Below are positions 1 to 48,447 of a stretch of DNA of 64,000 bases, piece by piece; within the stretch, counting starts at the first letter, position 1, and every line of letters starts with the position of its first letter. Under the pieces are notes generated by a model. That model made no database searches. It was not told the origin of the DNA and saw only the letters and a program-made list of their open reading frames with translations. Made by a program: the position numbers and the translations under genes. The DNA comes from Escherichia coli (GTDB lineage Bacteria; Pseudomonadota; Gammaproteobacteria; Enterobacterales; Enterobacteriaceae). The DNA is taken from assembly GCF_003991155.1 (NCBI RefSeq), contig NZ_CP031293.1; one strand, 5' to 3'.

Positions 1-573
1 TACGACGTGGAAGGCCGCGCCCGTGCCGGTGGTGCCTCCAGCTTCCTCGCGGACCGCGTGGAAGAAGAGGGCGAAGTCCGCGTATTTATCGAACATAACG
101 ACAACTTCCGCCTGCCAGCCAACCCAGAAACCCCGGTGATTATGATTGGCCCAGGCACCGGCATCGCGCCGTTCCGCGCCTTTATGCAGCAGCGCGCCGC
201 TGACGAAGCGCCGGGTAAAAACTGGTTGTTCTTTGGCAACCCGCACTTTACGGAAGATTTCCTCTACCAGGTGGAGTGGCAGCGCTACGTCAAAGAGGGC
301 GTGCTGACGCGTATCGATCTTGCCTGGTCGCGCGATCAAAAAGAAAAAATTTACGTACAAGACAAACTGCGCGAACAGGGCGCAGAGCTGTGGCGCTGGA
401 TCAATGACGGTGCCCACATTTATGTCTGCGGCGACGCTAATCGCATGGCGAAAGACGTTGAGCAGGCACTTCTGGAAGTGATTGCCGAATTTGGTGGCAT
501 GGACACCGAAGCGGCGGATGAATTTTTAAGTGAGCTGCGCGTAGAGCGCCGTTATCAGCGAGATGTCTACTAA
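1..573 (+). CDS. cysJ: sulfite reductase (NADPH) flavoprotein subunit, C-terminal part; 5' end lies upstream of the window
   Basis: Reading frame enters from window edge; C-terminal FAD/NADPH-binding domain sequence; stop overlaps cysI start (ATGA at 573). Confidence 0.9.
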
Positions 574-2285
574 TGAGCGAAAAACATCCAGGGCCTTTAG
601 TGGTCGAAGGAAAACTGACAGACGCCGAGCGCATGAAGCTTGAAAGCAACTACCTGCGCGGCACCATTGCGGAAGATTTAAACGACGGCCTGACCGGCGG
701 CTTTAAGGGCGATAACTTCCTGCTGATCCGCTTCCACGGCATGTATCAGCAGGATGACCGCGACATCCGCGCCGAACGTGCTGAACAGAAGCTGGAGCCG
801 CGCCACGCGATGCTGTTGCGCTGCCGTCTGCCGGGTGGCGTGATCACCACCAAACAGTGGCAGGCGATAGACAAATTTGCCGGTGAAAACACCATCTATG
901 GCAGCATTCGCCTGACCAACCGCCAGACGTTTCAGTTCCACGGCATTCTGAAAAAGAACGTCAAACCGGTGCACCAGATGCTGCACTCGGTCGGTCTTGA
1001 TGCGCTGGCGACCGCCAACGACATGAACCGTAACGTACTCTGCACCTCGAACCCTTACGAGTCGCAGCTGCACGCGGAAGCCTATGAATGGGCGAAGAAA
1101 ATTTCTGAACATCTGCTGCCTCGTACCCGCGCGTATGCGGAGATCTGGCTCGATCAGGAAAAAGTCGCCACTACTGATGAAGAGCCGATCCTTGGTCAGA
1201 CCTACCTGCCGCGTAAGTTCAAAACCACGGTAGTGATCCCGCCGCAGAACGATATCGATCTGCACGCCAACGACATGAACTTCGTGGCGATCGCCGAAAA
1301 CGGCAAGCTGGTGGGCTTTAACCTGCTGGTGGGCGGTGGGCTTTCCATCGAACATGGCAACAAGAAAACCTACGCCCGCACGGCGAGTGAGTTTGGCTAT
1401 CTGCCGCTGGAGCATACGCTGGCGGTGGCGGAAGCCGTCGTGACAACTCAGCGTGACTGGGGTAACCGAACCGATCGTAAAAATGCCAAAACCAAATACA
1501 CGCTGGAGCGCGTAGGGGTTGAGACGTTTAAAGCGGAAGTGGAGCGTCGCGCGGGGATCAAATTCGAGCCGATTCGCCCGTATGAGTTTACCGGACGTGG
1601 CGATCGTATTGGCTGGGTTAAGGGCATTGATGATAACTGGCACCTGACGCTGTTTATCGAAAATGGTCGCATCCTTGATTATCCGGGGCGTCCGCTGAAA
1701 ACCGGCTTGCTGGAGATCGCGAAGATCCACAAAGGTGATTTCCGCATTACGGCGAACCAGAATCTGATCATCGCCGGCGTGCCGGAAAGCGAGAAAGCGA
1801 AGATCGAGAAGATCGCCAAAGAAAGCGGGTTAATGAATGCCGTCACGCCGCAGCGTGAAAACTCAATGGCCTGCGTGTCATTCCCGACTTGCCCGCTGGC
1901 GATGGCCGAAGCCGAGCGTTTCCTGCCGTCTTTTATCGACAACATCGATAATTTAATGGCGAAACATGGTGTCAGCGATGAGCATATCGTGATGCGTGTA
2001 ACAGGCTGCCCGAACGGTTGTGGTCGCGCGATGCTGGCGGAAGTGGGCCTGGTGGGTAAAGCGCCGGGTCGCTACAACCTGCATCTTGGCGGCAACCGCA
2101 TTGGGACACGTATCCCACGGATGTATAAAGAAAACATCACCGAACCGGAAATCCTGGCGTCGCTTGATGAACTGATAGGGCGCTGGGCGAAAGAGCGCGA
2201 AGCGGGTGAAGGCTTCGGCGACTTTACGGTGCGTGCGGGCATCATTCGCCCGGTGCTCGATCCGGCGCGCGATTTGTGGGATTAA
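573..2285 (+). CDS. cysI: sulfite reductase hemoprotein beta subunit
   Basis: 570-aa ORF; recognised CysI sequence; translationally coupled to cysJ. Confidence 0.95.
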
Positions 2286-2301
2286 CCATCAGCCCGGTCT
2301 T

Positions 2302-2337
2302 GTAGGCCTGATAAGACGCGTGAGCGTCGCATCAGGC
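2302..2337. repeat. REP (repetitive extragenic palindrome) element between cysI and cysH
   Basis: gtaggcctgataagacgcg...gcgtcgcatcaggc imperfect palindrome typical of enterobacterial REP. Confidence 0.6.
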
Positions 2338-2358
2338 AAGGCAAACAGTGAGGAATCT

Positions 2359-3093
2359 ATGTCCAAACTCGATCTAAACGCCCTGAACGAACTGCCGAAG
2401 GTAGATCGCATTCTGGCGCTGGCGGAAACTAACGCCGAACTGGAAAAACTGGACGCTGAAGGCCGCGTTGCCTGGGCGCTGGATAATCTGCCTGGTGAAT
2501 ATGTACTTTCTTCCAGCTTTGGCATTCAGGCGGCGGTGAGCCTGCATCTGGTGAATCAGATTCGCCCGGATATTCCAGTGATCCTCACCGATACGGGTTA
2601 CTTGTTCCCGGAAACCTACCGCTTTATTGACGAGTTAACGGACAAACTCAAACTCAACCTGAAAGTGTACCGCGCTACCGAAAGCGCCGCCTGGCAGGAA
2701 GCACGTTACGGAAAACTATGGGAGCAGGGCGTTGAAGGCATTGAAAAGTACAATGACATCAACAAAGTCGAACCGATGAACCGGGCGCTGAAAGAACTAA
2801 ACGCGCAAACGTGGTTTGCTGGCCTGCGCCGTGAACAATCCGGCAGCCGCGCCAATTTACCGGTGCTGGCAATTCAGCGTGGCGTATTTAAAGTGCTGCC
2901 GATTATCGACTGGAATAACCGAACGATATATCAGTACCTGCAAAAACATGGCCTGAAATATCACCCATTATGGGACGAAGGATATTTATCGGTCGGTGAT
3001 ACCCATACAACCCGTAAATGGGAACCCGGCATGGCGGAAGAAGAAACGCGTTTCTTTGGCTTGAAAAGGGAATGTGGATTACACGAAGGGTAA
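2359..3093 (+). CDS. cysH: phosphoadenosine phosphosulfate (PAPS) reductase
   Basis: 244-aa ORF starting [14 protein letters not shown]; longer ORF-track start at 2206 rejected in favour of ATG at 2359, which matches the recalled CysH N-terminus and lies just downstream of the REP element. Confidence 0.93.
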
Positions 3094-3112
3094 ATATTGC
3101 TGCTTAAATTAA

Positions 3113-3149
3113 ACGCCTCTGTCTGAAAAGATGGGGGCGTTTTTATTTT
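3113..3149 (+). terminator. putative Rho-independent terminator after cysH
   Basis: GC-rich imperfect hairpin (acgcctc...gggggcgt) followed by TTTTTATTTT. Confidence 0.45.
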
Positions 3150-3357
3150 GCGAGCAGGATTCCTGATTTTAAACGTGAACGCCGCAGGAAGAATCAACAG
3201 GCATAGAATGGCGTTGGGTGCTTGAGGCTGTCTGGCGTTAAGCATTCGCGAGGTTCCAGATGGACAAAAGCCCCAGGCGATATTTCTATCAACCTGAGGC
3301 CAGCGTTCGAACCTAAGCAATTCGGATGTTAGTCTCTTCTTTGCAGGGAGGCAAGAC

Positions 3358-3510
3358 ATGCTGACAAAATATGCCCTTGTGGCAATCATCGTACTGTGTT
3401 GTACAGTACTGGGATTCACGTTGATGGTAGGCGACTCGTTGTGTGAGTTGAGTATCAGAGAACGTGGTATGGAGTTTAAGGCAGTTCTCGCTTACGAATC
3501 GAAGAAGTAG
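3358..3510 (+). CDS. Hok/Gef-family type I toxin (50 aa, small membrane peptide)
   Basis: ORF below the 60-aa track cutoff, translated by hand: [50 protein letters not shown]; hydrophobic N-terminal helix plus SLCE and AYES motifs shared with Hok/Gef/RelF; GGGAGG Shine-Dalgarno 7 nt upstream. Confidence 0.8.
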
Positions 3511-3515
3511 CCACC

Positions 3516-3575
3516 ACGCGGGGTAAAACCCCGCGTACTGAATTGTGATTGTTTGGCCTCCTGCACCCCTTTTTT
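3516..3575 (+). terminator. hok 3' structure: perfect 9-bp stem-loop, fold-back element complementary to transcript 5' region, then T-tract
   Basis: ACGCGGGGU/ACCCCGCGU stem at 3516-3536; GCCUCCUGCACCC (3557-3569) can pair 11/13 with GGGUGCUUGAGGC at 3216-3228; TTTTTT at 3570-3575. Confidence 0.55.
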
Positions 3576-3635
3576 ATACTCTGTTTCTGGTGGCATTGAT
3601 TTCCTGCAGGCAAGGGAGTAATCATTTCAAACCCA

Positions 3636-4673
3636 TTAAGATGCCTTCGCCAGCTCCTTCACCAACGGTAGCATTATCCGCATAACATCACGGCAGCGAC
3701 GTTCTATTCTTCCTGGAAGTGCCTTATCAATATGCTGTTGATTATCCAGTCTTACGTCATGCCAGCTATTTCCTGCAGGGAATGCGGCTGTTTTTGCGCG
3801 TTGCTGATAACCATCCTTATTCCCAAGATTCCAGTTTGTCGCTTCCACCGAAAGTACAGCAATGCCCGCTTTGTCGAATATTTCTGCGTCATTACAACAC
3901 CCAGTGCCTTTCGGATAGTTTTTATTCAAACCTGGATTTGTGGTGGCGGCAATTCCATGACTGCGGGCAATTGCCAGCGCCCGGTCGCGCGTTAATTTCC
4001 TTACTGCTTCAGGTGTTTTTACGCCACTGTTGAAATACAGCTTATCGCCAACAATCAGATTATCGAGATTAATCACCAATAAAGTATTTTTCTTTTCGGT
4101 ATCACTCATGCGCTTGAGTAAATTCTCAGCGCCTAATTTCCCTTCTTCTTCACCACTGGTTGCCACAAAACGAATGCCATATTCGGTTGGCGTATTTTTC
4201 AGGCGTTCAGCCAGCTCCAGCATGACACCTAAACCTGCGGCGTTATCATCCATTCCTTGTAACGTCAGCCCGCCGAGATTGGCATCGGCGTCAGCATCGC
4301 TCAGCGGGGCGTAAGTATCCAGATGCGCCATAATGATGATCTGCTGCGGCGCTTTGCCTTCATGAGCGGCAATCACCGTACTTCCCGTCACGTTATGCCA
4401 GCTCTTGCGATTATCGCGGGCGGTATAAATATACCGACTATTAAATGTCCGAATATCACTGCGATAACCCATTTGCTGAAACTGTTGGCGAATATAATCG
4501 GCAGATAACATTTCTGCAGGAGTTCCGGTCATGCGTCCCGGAAAGAAAGTAGCAATATGTCGTGCCTGGGTATTAGCAAAATCGCCAGGTTTAGGTGACG
4601 AGGCGTGTACGGGGAGAATAAAGCATACGCCGAGCGCCAGGGCAGCGGTACGGTGGCGCAATGCGGAAAACAT
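3636..4673 (-). CDS. iap: alkaline phosphatase isozyme conversion aminopeptidase
   Basis: 345-aa ORF with signal peptide and M28-type peptidase features; convergent with hok. Confidence 0.9.
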   Translation of the reverse strand: MFSALRHRTAALALGVCFILPVHASSPKPGDFANTQARHIATFFPGRMTGTPAEMLSADYIRQQFQQMGYRSDIRTFNSRYIYTARDNRKSWHNVTGSTVIAAHEGKAPQQIIIMAHLDTYAPLSDADADANLGGLTLQGMDDNAAGLGVMLELAERLKNTPTEYGIRFVATSGEEEGKLGAENLLKRMSDTEKKNTLLVINLDNLIVGDKLYFNSGVKTPEAVRKLTRDRALAIARSHGIAATTNPGLNKNYPKGTGCCNDAEIFDKAGIAVLSVEATNWNLGNKDGYQQRAKTAAFPAGNSWHDVRLDNQQHIDKALPGRIERRCRDVMRIMLPLVKELAKAS

Positions 4674-27944: not shown

Positions 27945-27960
27945 AGCAATAATTGTGCCA
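27945..27960 (-). promoter_or_regulatory. sigma-54 (-24/-12) promoter for hyp operon
   Basis: Minus-strand reading TGGCAC-aatta-TTGCT, about 30 bp upstream of hypA. Confidence 0.7.
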
Positions 27961-28073: not shown

Positions 28074-28089
28074 TGGCACAGAAAATGCT
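28074..28089 (+). promoter_or_regulatory. sigma-54 (-24/-12) promoter for hyc operon
   Basis: TGGCAC-agaaa-ATGCT, about 37 bp upstream of hycA start. Confidence 0.7.
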
Positions 28090-28125: not shown

Positions 28126-28587
28126 ATGACTATTTGGGAAATAAGCGAGAAAGCCGATTACATCGCACAGCGGCATCGTCGCCTACAGGACCAGTGGCAC
28201 ATCTACTGCAATTCGCTGGTTCAGGGGATCACGTTATCGAAAGCGCGCCTGCATCACGCCATGAGTTGCGCGCCGGACAAAGAACTCTGTTTCGTCCTTT
28301 TTGAACATTTTCGTATTTATGTCACCCTGGCGGATGGCTTTAACAGCCACACCATCGAGTATTACGTCGAAACAAAAGATGGTGAAGACAAACAGCGGAT
28401 TGCGCAGGCGCAACTGAGCATTGACGGCATGATTGATGGCAAGGTCAACATCCGCGATCGCGAACAAGTTCTGGAACACTATCTCGAAAAAATCGCTGGC
28501 GTTTACGACAGCTTATATACCGCCATTGAAAACAATGTGCCGGTGAATTTAAGCCAACTGGTAAAGGGACAAAGCCCGGCAGCATGA
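28126..28587 (+). CDS. hycA: formate hydrogenlyase regulatory protein HycA
   Basis: 153-aa ORF in first position of the hyc operon. Confidence 0.9.
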   Translation: MTIWEISEKADYIAQRHRRLQDQWHIYCNSLVQGITLSKARLHHAMSCAPDKELCFVLFEHFRIYVTLADGFNSHTIEYYVETKDGEDKQRIAQAQLSIDGMIDGKVNIRDREQVLEHYLEKIAGVYDSLYTAIENNVPVNLSQLVKGQSPAA

Positions 28588-35985: not shown

Positions 35986-36009
35986 TTCTTCATTAGGGAA
36001 TTCAGGGAA

Positions 36010-36783
36010 TTGAACATCAAAACAGGGATGTGCGCTTTTTTATTGAGCTTAGTGCTGCCTGCACAGGCCACCAGCTTTACCGAATATCTGCCAATGAGTG
36101 ACAGCGAATACGCGCAAAAGCGGGCGCTGAAACCTCTCCTGACTATGCCTTATTATACCGAGCAAACCTGGCATTTTAGAAAAGTGGGCGTTGCTGGCGT
36201 GACGCTTGAGAAGATGCCAAATGATGATAGTGAATGGCAATTGAACGGTAAAGATCGCGCCGGTAAATCCTGGTCTGTGCCTGTGGGGGTGCTGCAAAAT
36301 ATGGCGGGTAATGCGCAACTTTACCGTGCCGATCTTGATCGTAACGGCATTCAGGATCTGGTTATCTGGCGGGGTATTTCAGGAAATGGTCTGGCACCTA
36401 ACGCGTTTTTGATTCTGATGACCTTTAATCAGCAAGGTCGCCCGTGTGTTTTTCAGTCCGATAGTTTTTATACCGCAAGTGAAACTGGCATTGATGATTT
36501 GCTGGATTTACAAAGGAATGGCCACACGCAATTGCTGGATATGCAGTTTGATTCCGGTTACTGGATAACCAGTCTGTATCAGGTAAAAGACGCCAAATGG
36601 CAGCGTGTTCACGGCTGGTTTGGCAAGTTAAGCTATCCCGCGCTCACGCGTTTTACTTATACCCCCAACCGTAAACTCGTCCTCAAACCCATCGCCGGGC
36701 GCGACCCGCAATCGGAAGATCTGGCGCTGACGCAGCGTTGCTTGATAAAGGGGGATGTTCTTGATGGGGTGAACCAGCTCTGA
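36010..36783 (+). CDS. hypothetical exported protein (predicted signal peptide, cleavage near AQA-TS)
   Basis: 257-aa ORF 24 bp after hycI, same strand; TTG start gives MNIKTGMCAFLLSLVLPAQA (ATG at 36028 is an alternative); no recognised family. Confidence 0.55.
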   Translation: MNIKTGMCAFLLSLVLPAQATSFTEYLPMSDSEYAQKRALKPLLTMPYYTEQTWHFRKVGVAGVTLEKMPNDDSEWQLNGKDRAGKSWSVPVGVLQNMAGNAQLYRADLDRNGIQDLVIWRGISGNGLAPNAFLILMTFNQQGRPCVFQSDSFYTASETGIDDLLDLQRNGHTQLLDMQFDSGYWITSLYQVKDAKWQRVHGWFGKLSYPALTRFTYTPNRKLVLKPIAGRDPQSEDLALTQRCLIKGDVLDGVNQL

Positions 36784-36798
36784 TGCCAAACGCCAGAT

Positions 36799-36862
36799 TG
36801 CCCGATGCGCAACGCTTATCGGGCCTTGTAGGCCGGATAAGGCGTTCACGCCGCATCCGGCA
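36799..36862. repeat. BIME: two adjacent REP-type palindromic units
   Basis: ttgcccgatgcgcaacgcttatcgggcc and gtaggccggataaggcgttcacgccgcatccggca. Confidence 0.7.
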
Positions 36863-36869
36863 CGGTTAC

Positions 36870-44176: not shown

Positions 44177-45310
44177 CTACATCGGCAACGTTTTCAACAA
44201 TCCAAACGCCTCTTTCATCCGATCCTCACTGACCACAAAGGCGCGAAGCTGGTCTGTATCGTCAACGCCGCGTGCCACCATTCCCTGATGTTCGGTATTA
44301 ATTTGCCAGCGTAAATCCTGACGCTGGGTTTCGCCTGCCAGATGCAGCGGTAATTCTGGCGTTTTGATTTTCACCAGCATCGCCGGGAGTTTCAGCGGCG
44401 TGTTATTGCCGAGAAGAATTTTTGCCAGCACCATCGCGCTAAGTTGAATCGGCTGGAGGAACGGCAATACCTGACCGTTAATTTCCGCGCAATCGCCCAG
44501 CGCATAAATATCGGCATTACTGGTTTGCAGATAACTATCGACGCAAACGCCGCGATTAATCGTCAGCCCGGCGCGTCGTGCCAGGGCGGTTTCCGGGCGC
44601 AGCCCGGTGGCGGCAATTACCGCATCCACTTCGATGCTGCGCTGGCGGTCCAGCGTTGCCAGAATGCCAGAATCCGTTTTTTCCAGCCCCTGCAACTGAG
44701 ATTTTAACAGCAGATGAACGCCCATCTCCGTCAACCGATGCTGCAAGCGGCTGCTTACTTCCGGTGGCATTAACGATGCCAGAATACTGGCAGCGTTGTC
44801 GATTAGCGTGACCGCTTTGCCTGCACGACAAAAATCCATCGCCAGTTCGCTACCAATCAAGCCACCGCCAACAATCAACACGCGTCGGGCATCCCGCAGT
44901 TGCGTTTCACAGGCGCGATACTCTTGCTGACTATTTAACGTCAGCATTAACTCACGCCCGGGCACTGGCGGGACAAAGGCGCTGGCACCGGTTGCCAGCA
45001 CTAACTTGTCGTATTGCCACTGATTATTCTGACTTTTCACCACATGGGCTTTGGCATCGATATCCGTTACCCAGGTGTGCGGAAACAGGCGCAGATTAAA
45101 CTGCCCGGCAAATTCACCTGCCGTCTGGCGGGTAAGGTCGTCGGCACGTTGCCCCTGACTGATAACATGGCTGAGGTCAGGTTTGTTGTACTCATCCATG
45201 CTGTCGGCGGCAATCAGGGTTAATGGAATACTGGCGTCCTGTTTGCGAATATTTTTCACCAGTTGGCGGGCGGCGAAGCCCGAACCAATGATCACAATGC
45301 CGTTGCTCAT
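44177..45310 (-). CDS. norW: NADH:flavorubredoxin reductase
   Basis: 377-aa ORF; FAD/NAD GxGxxG motifs. Confidence 0.93.
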
Positions 45311-46746
45311 TTTGCCTCCGATGCCAGTTCGTCAAAGACGTCTTTGCCGAGAGAGCATTCCGGGCACAGGAAGTTATCCGGGACTTCACTCCACGGCGTT
45401 CCTGGCGCAACGTCCTGCATTGGCTCGCCTTTTGCCGGATCGTAAATCCACTGGCAGACGCTGCATTGCATCCGTGGGCCGAGGTCAGCCGTCGTGGCGG
45501 CAGAGGTTTCTTCTTTAACCACCGTATTCACCGTGCTCTGCGGCAGCGGCGCGAGCGCCCACTGACGGGCGATTTCGCGACCGTGTTCACGACATAACTC
45601 CAGAGCGTCCTGGTCTGGTCGCCATTTGGCTTTCAGGCTAAGCGACATTTCGAAACCCGCATCCTGCAGGCGCGTGGAAAGACGATCCACCGCACCGCCG
45701 CTCCAGCCGTGAGAGCCGAAAGCGCTGGCGCGTTTGTTACGGAAGCGTAATCCGGTCATCTCCTCCACCAGCCCGGCGATTTTCGGCATCATCACATTAT
45801 TCATCGTAGAGGTGCCGACCAGCACGCCTTTTGAGCGGAAGACATTGGTCAGGATTTCGTTTTTATCGCTTCGGGCGACGTTGAAAATTTTCACCGCCAC
45901 GCGTGGGTCGGTTTCCGCAATCCCCTGGGCGATAGCGTCAGCCATCATGCGGGTGTTATTCGACATGGTGTCGTAGAAAATGGTGATTCTGTCTTCCTGA
46001 TAATCCGCCGCCCATTTCAGGTACAGCTCGACAATTTGCGTCGGGTTATCGCGCCATACCACGCCGTGAGAGGTCGCTATCATATCGACTGGTAAGTTAA
46101 AGCCCAGGATCTCGGTAATTTTCGGCGTTACCAGGCGGCTGAACGGCGTCAGGATATTGGCGTAGTAACGCTGGCACTGCTCGAAAAGCTCCGTCTGATC
46201 CACTTCATCGTTGAACAGATGCTCGTCGCAGTAGTGCTGACCGAAAGCATCGTTACTGAACAGCACCGCGTCGCCTGTCAGGTAAGTCATCATGCTGTCC
46301 GGCCAGTGCAGCATTGGCGTTTCGACAAAAATGAGCTGTTTGCCGTTGCCGATATCCAGCGTGTCGCCAGTTTTCACCACATTAAAATTCCACTCCGGAT
46401 GATGGTGATGACCATTTATTGAGTCGATAGCGTTGGCAGTACAATAGATCGGCGTATCGGGAATTTGCGCCATCAGTTCGGTCAGCGCCCCGGCGTGATC
46501 CTCTTCAGCATGGTTAATCACGATGTAATCGATATCCGCCAGATCGATTTCATTACGCAGGTTCTGCACAAATTCGCGGCTGAATTTATGGTCGACGGTG
46601 TCGATCAGCACGTTTTTTTCTTCACGGATGAGGTAGCTGTTGTAGCTGCTGCCGCGCAGCGTTTTATATTCTGTACCGTGAAAATCACGTACTTCCCAGT
46701 CACGTTGACCAACCCAATGAATGTTATTTTTCACCACAATAGACAT
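45307..46746 (-). CDS. norV: anaerobic nitric oxide reductase flavorubredoxin
   Basis: 479-aa full-length ORF; metallo-beta-lactamase, flavodoxin and C-terminal rubredoxin CxxC pairs. Confidence 0.95.
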
Positions 46747-46792
46747 AGCAACCTCAATTTATTCAGCGTGTTCTAAAAAGATGTCTTGCTAA

Positions 46793-46809
46793 TTGCAGAT
46801 TGCGTGCCA
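46793..46809 (-). promoter_or_regulatory. sigma-54 (-24/-12) promoter for norVW
   Basis: Minus-strand reading TGGCAC-gcaat-CTGCA. Confidence 0.7.
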
Positions 46810-46864
46810 GTTTTTTATCTGATTGTTTTTACTCTATAAATAAAATTGTGCTCATTAATGAGTA

Positions 46865-46920
46865 GTCAAAATGACTATCAATAAAATGGTCGATATGACA
46901 ATATCTATAGTCAAATTGAC
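46865..46920. promoter_or_regulatory. three NorR enhancer-binding sites (GTCA-N3-TGAC)
   Basis: gtcaaaatgac (46865-46875), gtcgatatgac (46889-46899), gtcaaattgac (46910-46920). Confidence 0.75.
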
Positions 46921-46932
46921 AGTGAGGCAAAG

Positions 46933-48447
46933 ATGAGTTTTTCCGTTGATGTGCTGGCGAATATCGCCATCGAATTGCAGCGTGGGATTGGTCATCAGGA
47001 TCGTTTTCAGCGCCTGATCACCACGCTGCGTCAGGTGCTGGAGTGTGATGCCTCTGCGTTGCTACGTTACGACTCGCGGCAGTTTATTCCGCTTGCCATC
47101 GACGGGCTGGCGAAGGATGTACTCGGTAGACGCTTTGCGCTGGAAGGGCATCCACGGCTGGAAGCGATTGCCCGCGCCGGGGACGTGGTGCGTTTTCCCG
47201 CAGACAGCGAATTGCCCGATCCCTATGACGGTTTGATTCCCGGGCAGGAGAGTCTGAAGGTTCACGCCTGCGTTGGTCTGCCATTGTTTGCCGGGCAAAA
47301 CCTGATCGGCGCATTGACGCTCGACGGGATGCAGCCCGATCAGTTCGATGTTTTCAGCGACGAAGAGTTACGCCTGATTGCCGCGCTGGCGGCGGGAGCG
47401 TTAAGCAATGCGTTGCTGATTGAGCAACTGGAAAGCCAGAATATGCTGCCGGGCGATGCCGCGCCGTTTGAAGCGGTGAAACAGACGCAGATGATTGGCT
47501 TGTCGCCAGGCATGACGCAATTGAAAAAAGAGATTGAGATTGTGGCGGCGTCCGATCTCAACGTCCTGATCAGCGGTGAGACTGGAACCGGTAAGGAGCT
47601 GGTGGCGAAAGCGATTCATGAAGCCTCGCCACGGGCGGTGAATCCGCTGGTCTATCTCAACTGTGCTGCACTGCCGGAAAGTGTGGCGGAAAGTGAGTTG
47701 TTCGGGCATGTGAAAGGAGCGTTTACTGGTGCTATCAGTAACCGCAGCGGGAAGTTTGAAATGGCGGATAACGGCACACTGTTTCTCGATGAGATCGGCG
47801 AGTTGTCGTTGGCATTGCAGGCCAAGCTGCTGAGGGTGTTGCAGTATGGCGATATTCAGCGCGTTGGCGATGACCGCAGTTTGCGGGTCGATGTGCGCGT
47901 GCTGGCGGCGACTAACCGCGACTTACGCGAAGAGGTGCTGGCAGGGCGATTCCGCGCCGATTTGTTTCATCGCCTGAGCGTGTTTCCACTTTCGGTGCCG
48001 CCGCTGCGTGAGCGGGGCGATGATGTCATTCTGCTGGCGGGGTATTTCTGCGAGCAGTGTCGTTTGCGGCTGGGGCTCTCCCGCGTGGTATTAAGTTCCG
48101 GGGCGCGGAATTTATTGCAACATTATAGTTTCCCGGGGAACGTGCGCGAACTGGAACATGCTATTCATCGGGCGGTAGTGCTGGCGAGAGCAACCCGCAG
48201 CGGCGATGAAGTGATTCTCGAGGCGCAACATTTTGCTTTTCCTGAGGTGACGTTGCCGCCGCGAGAAGCTGCGGCGGTGCCCGTTGTTAAGCAAAATCTG
48301 CGTGAAGCGACAGAAGCGTTCCAGCGTGAAACCATTCGCCAGGCACTGGCACAAAATCATCACAACTGGGCTGCCTGCGCGCGAATGCTGGAAACTGACG
48401 TCGCCAACCTGCATCGGCTGGCGAAACGTCTGGGATTGAAGGATTAA
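46933..48447 (+). CDS. norR: anaerobic nitric oxide reductase transcription regulator (sigma-54 dependent)
   Basis: 504-aa ORF; GAF domain plus AAA+ sigma-54 activator motifs ([14 protein letters not shown]). Confidence 0.95.

Follow-up and report, generated by a model that had tools for sequence, protein, structure and literature searches.

The window, the whole 64-kb stretch of Escherichia coli DNA that was analysed, carries norR and norV in divergent orientation. The gap between the two genes is 186 bp long (46747-46932) and, by the ORF listing, lies exactly between two ATGs, that of norV at 46746 on the minus strand and that of norR at 46933 on the plus strand. Its G+C content is 32%, against 53% for the window. 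A Shine-Dalgarno GAGG precedes each gene, at 46755-46752 for norV and at 46924-46927 for norR. Moreover, there is a 4-bp overlap between norW and the norV stop, and therefore norV and norW constitute one operon. The gene order is that of K-12 (hypF, norW, norV / norR, gutQ, srlR), with the window running in the orientation opposite to that of the K-12 record compared. Within the gap lie three NorR boxes, an AT-rich spacer and a sigma-54 promoter (Table 1), and the gap almost certainly represents the native norR-norVW regulatory region of E. coli. No known RNA element was returned by an Rfam scan (46000-47600, E<=1).

Table 1. Genes and regulatory features of the norW-norV-norR segment of the window
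Feature	Position	Strand	Basis and remarks
norW, NADH:flavorubredoxin reductase, 377 aa	44177-45310	minus	identity to K-12; NCBIfam
norV, flavorubredoxin NO reductase, 479 aa, 1440 bp	45307-46746	minus	identity to K-12; NCBIfam; Pfam
Putative norV transcription start	46783	minus	back-calculated from protection range; 5' UTR ~37 nt
sigma-54 promoter of norVW, TGGCAC-N5-CTGCA, TGGCACGCAATCTGCA	46809->46794	minus	pattern search; identity to K-12; conservation
AT-rich promoter-enhancer spacer, 22% G+C	46810-46864		composition and conservation profile
NorR site 1, GTCAAAATGAC	46865-46875	plus-strand reading	match to Site1 mutagenic primer; ~ -82 to -92
NorR site 2, GTCGATATGAC	46889-46899	plus-strand reading	match to Site2 primer, identical in K-12; ~ -106 to -116
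NorR site 3, GTCAAATTGAC	46910-46920	plus-strand reading	match to Site3 primer; ~ -127 to -137
norR, NO-sensing sigma-54 enhancer-binding protein, 504 aa	46933-48447	plus	identity to K-12; NCBIfam; Pfam

The three proteins are full length and align with their K-12 counterparts without gaps. NorV is identical at 476/479 residues (3 substitutions), NorW at 365/377 and NorR at 497/504, and the scores against the respective equivalog models are 1047 bits for NorV (NF003954, cut-off 711), 681 bits for NorW (NF003437, cut-off 392) and 825 bits for NorR (NF003451, cut-off 476). Pfam domains comprise metallo-beta-lactamase/ODP, flavodoxin and rubredoxin in NorV, pyridine nucleotide-disulphide oxidoreductase and the rubredoxin-binding domain in NorW, and GAF, Sigma54_activat and AAA_lid_14 in NorR. 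No Pfam HTH model scored above threshold in NorR; nevertheless, it has a C-terminal DNA-binding region, and its C-terminal 58 residues are identical to those of K-12 NorR, as are residues 1-176, and the seven NorR substitutions avoid both of these stretches as well as the GAFTGA motif, which is found at residues 262-267 in the AAA+ domain. All of the iron ligands, R75, D96, D99, C113 and D131, are present (ligand list: PMC4601167). NorW, with 12 substitutions, is more diverged from K-12 than the adjoining NorV.

The first-pass annotation of this DNA had described norV as full length, and the intact 1440-bp ORF, gap-free against K-12, bears this out. In clades 1-3 of O157:H7 norV carries a 204-bp deletion and is regarded as non-functional (PMC8779985). 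A defective norV of this type, with the 204-bp in-frame deletion, can be ruled out here, given a length of 1440 bp and no gaps relative to K-12. The strain thus carries an intact canonical NorR-NorVW module and not the deleted norV of O157:H7 clades 1-3. From the intact genes and motifs, NO detoxification by NorVW is very probably functional in this strain. Some studies associate intact norV with anaerobic NO tolerance, macrophage survival and modulation of Shiga-toxin expression (PMC8779985).

Site 1 is the box nearest the norV promoter, and site 3 is the nearest to norR, ending 12 bp before the norR ATG. All three boxes lie inside 56 bp, with start-to-start distances of 24 and 21 bp, in keeping with the spacing of about 20-24 bp first proposed for them. 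They had been described as three GTCA-N3-TGAC palindromes; three boxes are indeed present, all of the form GTC-N5-GAC, with the exact palindrome confined to the outer two. Site 2 is one base off, reading GTCG-N3-TGAC (GTCA-N3-CGAC on the other strand), and is thus an imperfect palindrome that keeps the GT-N7-AC core and is the same in K-12. A search with the exact pattern misses it and the relaxed pattern GTCR-N3-TGAC recovers it. In the 64-kb window GTCA-N3-TGAC occurs at 5 sites, compared with 0.75 expected, and a count of 5 was reached in 0/100 shuffles. Such a cluster of three boxes in 56 bp, kept unchanged from genus to genus, goes far beyond chance.

The original footprinting paper for NorR is said to be Tucker 2004. 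The stated NorR box consensus is GT-N7-AC, and NorR sites 1, 2 and 3 are defined by the mutagenic primers of Tucker et al. 2010, which change GT-N7-AC to GG-N7-CC (PMC2831303). With the wild-type bases restored, these primers match the window exactly at 46865-75, 46889-99 and 46910-20. Moreover, the 66-bp 'NorR123' oligonucleotide of the same study matches 46860-46925 on the minus strand with a single mismatch, at position 46883, where the window and K-12 differ (PMC2831303). The proposal that these boxes are the canonical NorR enhancer is therefore supported by base-for-base agreement with sites defined by mutagenesis and footprinting (PMC2831303), and alignment to the characterised intergenic region revealed no displacement from the mapped sites. 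In K-12, loss of any single site abolished induction of a norV-lacZ fusion in vivo, and both NorR ATPase activity and open-complex formation needed all three sites (PMC2831303).

A minus-strand TGGCAC-N5-CTGCA had also been claimed for the norR-norV region, and it is present as TGGCACGCAATCTGCA, which starts 63 nt before the norV ATG, at a distance of 66 bp from site 1. Its GG falls at 46808/46807 and its GC at 46796/46795. The spacing between the -24 and -12 elements is canonical, and the promoter sits between the enhancer and norV. In K-12 a peak of RpoN holoenzyme has been located in the norR/norV spacer by in-vitro gSELEX (PMC8743547). The rpoN and ihfA/ihfB genes lie outside the 64-kb window.

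The norV start is a back-calculation and not a mapped position. The published range of NorR methylation protection is -137 to -84 (PMC2831303). With +1 at 46783, position -137 would be the outer G of site 3 and position -84 a G within site 1 (norV-sense strand in both cases); the protected range then fits the boxes, and the GC of the promoter comes to lie at -13/-12 and its GG at -25/-24. We infer a start at 46783 because it fits both the -137/-84 G residues and the canonical placement of GC and GG. Position 46781 was considered as well and rejected; it satisfies the arithmetic of the G residues, but the resulting -12 spacing of the promoter is non-canonical.

Matches to the pattern TGGCAC-N5-YTGCW number 3 over the 64 kb, where 0.25 would be expected. 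Elsewhere in the window, sigma-54 matches were found in the divergent hypA/hycA region at 27945-27960 (minus), 28074-28089 (plus) and 28195-28210 (plus). This region carries the two sigma-54 promoters expected of it, TGGCACAATTATTGCT toward hypA and TGGCACAGAAAATGCT toward hycA, separated by a stretch with repeats of the GTCGAAATGAC type. The third match, TGGCACATCTACTGCA, is likewise a strong -24/-12 element and is sense-oriented within hycA itself, approximately 70 nt into the coding sequence.

In the spacer between promoter and enhancer, a conserved block of the form AATCAG...TAAAAAA lies directly upstream of the -24 element (46811-46830). In K-12, IHF is reported to bind and bend the DNA between the norV start site and the NorR sites (PMC2831303). 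An exact copy of the IHF consensus WATCARNNNNTTR is absent from the whole intergenic region, the spacer at 46810-46864 included, and the sole match with one mismatch is at 46876-46888, between NorR sites 1 and 2 and outside the spacer. By analogy with K-12, the IHF position would probably fall within the spacer.

Aligned with MG1655, the intergenic region shows 0 gaps and 3 substitutions, with G for A at 46848, T for C at 46852 and A for C at 46883 (window versus K-12 MG1655). All three lie outside the NorR boxes and the -24/-12 element, that at 46883 between sites 1 and 2 and the other two in the AT-rich spacer. A 261-bp query across the region found a full-length match in 5425/5426 complete E. 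coli genomes, always under annotated norV and norR. The 66-bp enhancer was recovered at >=95% identity in 5417/5426, with 610 genomes identical to the window.

Over the full 261-bp region FDAARGOS_497 is 100% identical to the window, and over the rest of the window its identity is 97.4-98.5%. At 1-4673 the window carries cysJ (3' part), cysI and cysH and then directly iap, with approximately 540 bp between; the type I-E CRISPR-Cas locus and array that FDAARGOS_497 has here are missing, with no sign of a repeat array in this segment. Between hycI and ascB the window has a 257-aa ORF without a Pfam family (36010-36783, plus strand), in place of which FDAARGOS_497 has a different small HTH gene. 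This ORF is found at >=80% coverage in 1461/5426 complete E. coli genomes, and its 3' flank (36752-36865) consists of a multicopy repeat found at a median of 37 places in each genome. E. coli 2016C-3878 (NZ_CP029747.1) is 100% identical to the window over norV (45307-46746) and over the variable hycI-ascB segment (35990-36865).

A scan of the genome collection for NorV yielded 80 loci, one per species, mostly from Enterobacteriaceae with the addition of Yersinia and Xenorhabdus. The 79 loci with enough upstream sequence, together with the window, gave 80 upstream regions for comparison. Three GTY-N5-RAC boxes are present in 78/80 of these, spaced at 21/24 bp in 75 and at 20/24 bp in 3. Site 1 and TGGCA are 64-67 bp apart in 79/80, the value being 66 bp in 57. 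When the 79 distinct sequences were aligned with MAFFT, the most conserved non-coding columns were those of the GTC/GAC half-sites and of TGGCA, all essentially without variation, with the bases between them drifting. Across the 80 sequences the GTC and GAC of the boxes are ~100% conserved. In the multi-genus alignment TGGCA is invariant and the G and C at -13/-12 are 90-100% conserved. In ~44/80 promoters the -24 TGGCAC and the enhancer geometry are kept while the canonical C of the -12 element is missing; these include Klebsiella, Raoultella, Kosakonia and most Enterobacter loci (L008, L017, L020, L045 and others).

A fourth exact GTCA-N3-TGAC, GTCACGTTGAC, is found at 46699-46709, 37 nt inside norV, and is also present in K-12. 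It covers the norV codons Gly-Gln-Arg-Asp, and we rejected it as an extra NorR site since its 'GT' depends on a freely varying wobble base of the Gly codon. Among the 74/80 sequences with a listed codon context, this codon is GGC in 36, GGT in 22, GGA in 10 and GGG in 6. The fragments delimited by the listed primers of the published fusion and binding constructs contain only half of GTCACGTTGAC, which most likely arose by coincidence from the coding sequence. The primers listed for a '266-bp' fragment (PMC2831303) map 312 bp apart in the window, at 46703-46723 and 46995-47014, with one end mismatch each; this looks like an inconsistency in the primer listing of that paper and not in the sequence.

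Could the -24/-12 match and the GTC-N5-GAC repeats be chance motifs in AT-rich intergenic DNA, with no regulatory role? The motifs are short, GTCR-N3-TGAC has matches elsewhere in the window, where 3.45 are expected by chance, and the exact palindrome inside norV itself appears coincidental. However, the enrichment over shuffles, the 21/24-bp spacing fixed in 75/80 sequences from many genera, and half-sites that stay invariant while their flanks drift all argue against this, and the boxes are identical to the K-12 sites whose mutation abolishes norV activation. We consider this explanation barely credible and effectively refuted, because of the conservation and the published mutagenesis of identical sequence. 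It is very unlikely, too, that the architecture is present but impaired, with NO detoxification by NorVW rendered non-functional by the three intergenic SNPs or by the substitutions in NorR (7), NorW (12) or NorV (3). The differences from K-12 are real, the DNA around the boxes influences both the stability of the oligomer and ATPase activity (PMC2831303), and lineages with a defective norV do exist in O157:H7 clades 1-3. Yet the SNPs leave every box and the -24/-12 element untouched, 610 genomes have the 66-bp enhancer in the identical allele and the 261-bp region is shared without change by FDAARGOS_497. Moreover, the NorR substitutions spare the GAF domain with its iron ligands (within residues 1-176), GAFTGA and the last 58 residues, there are no frameshifts, no stop codons and no 204-bp deletion, and all three proteins stand far above their equivalog cut-offs. 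A milder effect, in which GTCACGTTGAC or the three strain-specific SNPs might modulate assembly of the NorR nucleoprotein complex, has only a slim chance of being real; approximately 130 bp of flanking DNA has been proposed to wrap the NorR hexamer (PMC2831303). If such modulation took place, the NO response of this allele would differ quantitatively from that of K-12.

The enhancer reading preferred here is compatible with a further role for the same three boxes, through which NorR may also repress its own gene (negative autoregulation). Hutchings et al. 2002 reportedly described a modest negative autoregulation of this gene. Site 3 ends only 12 bp before the norR ATG and therefore the norR promoter must overlap the enhancer; furthermore, the norR Shine-Dalgarno follows directly after site 3. 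Against this, a consensus scan of 46600-47050 returned no sigma-70-like promoter on the plus strand and one weak match on the minus strand (1 versus 1.2 expected). We regard the case for autoregulation as evenly balanced.

The mechanism proposed for the norR-norVW enhancer and promoter is that of the K-12 literature (PMC2831303, PMC4601167), carried over by near-identity of sequence. On the same basis NorR binding, sigma-54 dependence and NO-inducible transcription, as established by experiments in K-12 (PMC2831303, PMC4601167, PMC8743547), would be expected in this strain. Three NorR dimers would occupy the three GT-N7-AC inverted repeats at 46865-46920, with centres at approximately -87, -111 and -132, and binding of all three sites together with the flanking DNA would yield a stable NorR hexamer poised on DNA. 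A bend introduced by IHF in the AT-rich spacer (46810-46864) would then allow the hexamer to meet the closed complex of sigma-54-RNA polymerase on TGGCAC-N5-CTGCA. Binding of NO to the mononuclear Fe(II) of the NorR GAF domain would release repression of the AAA+ domain, and ATP hydrolysis would convert the closed to the open complex, after which norV-norW would be transcribed (minus strand). The NorVW products would in turn reduce NO to N2O.

In summary, the norR-norVW control region in this strain is of the textbook NorR/sigma-54 type, which is already known and not a discovery. It is of use for annotation and as a positive control for the motif-based reading of raw sequence, and adds little that is new. 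With the K-12 norR-norVW region it shares the locus and the gene order (gutQ-norR / norV-norW-hypF) and, without any change, the boxes, the box spacing and the -24/-12 element; the difference amounts to 3/186 bases outside the motifs together with a small number of residue changes across the three proteins NorR, NorV and NorW. O157:H7 clades 1-3 (EDL933/Sakai) share the same locus and the same regulatory region; however, norV of the Sakai type is shortened to 1236 bp and spans 86% of the norV of the window, whose allele is the intact 1440 bp. The norV promoters of other Enterobacterales, including Salmonella, Citrobacter, Klebsiella, Enterobacter, Kluyvera and others, likewise have three GTC-N5-GAC boxes at 21/24-bp spacing, followed by TGGCA(C) approximately 66 bp later. 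They differ in that other genera mostly have GTCATATTGAC as site 2, the eighth base on the norV-sense strand being C in E. coli, and in that ~44/80 norV promoters read TTGAT, TTGTA or similar at -12 and not CTGCA. Lastly, the arrangement resembles that of NtrC at glnAp2 and of three TyrR boxes in its upstream activator sites, DNA looping and open-complex formation driven by an AAA+ hexamer. NorR is described as unusual in that it absolutely requires all three of its sites and in that it is regulated when already assembled on DNA and not through control of oligomerisation (PMC2831303).
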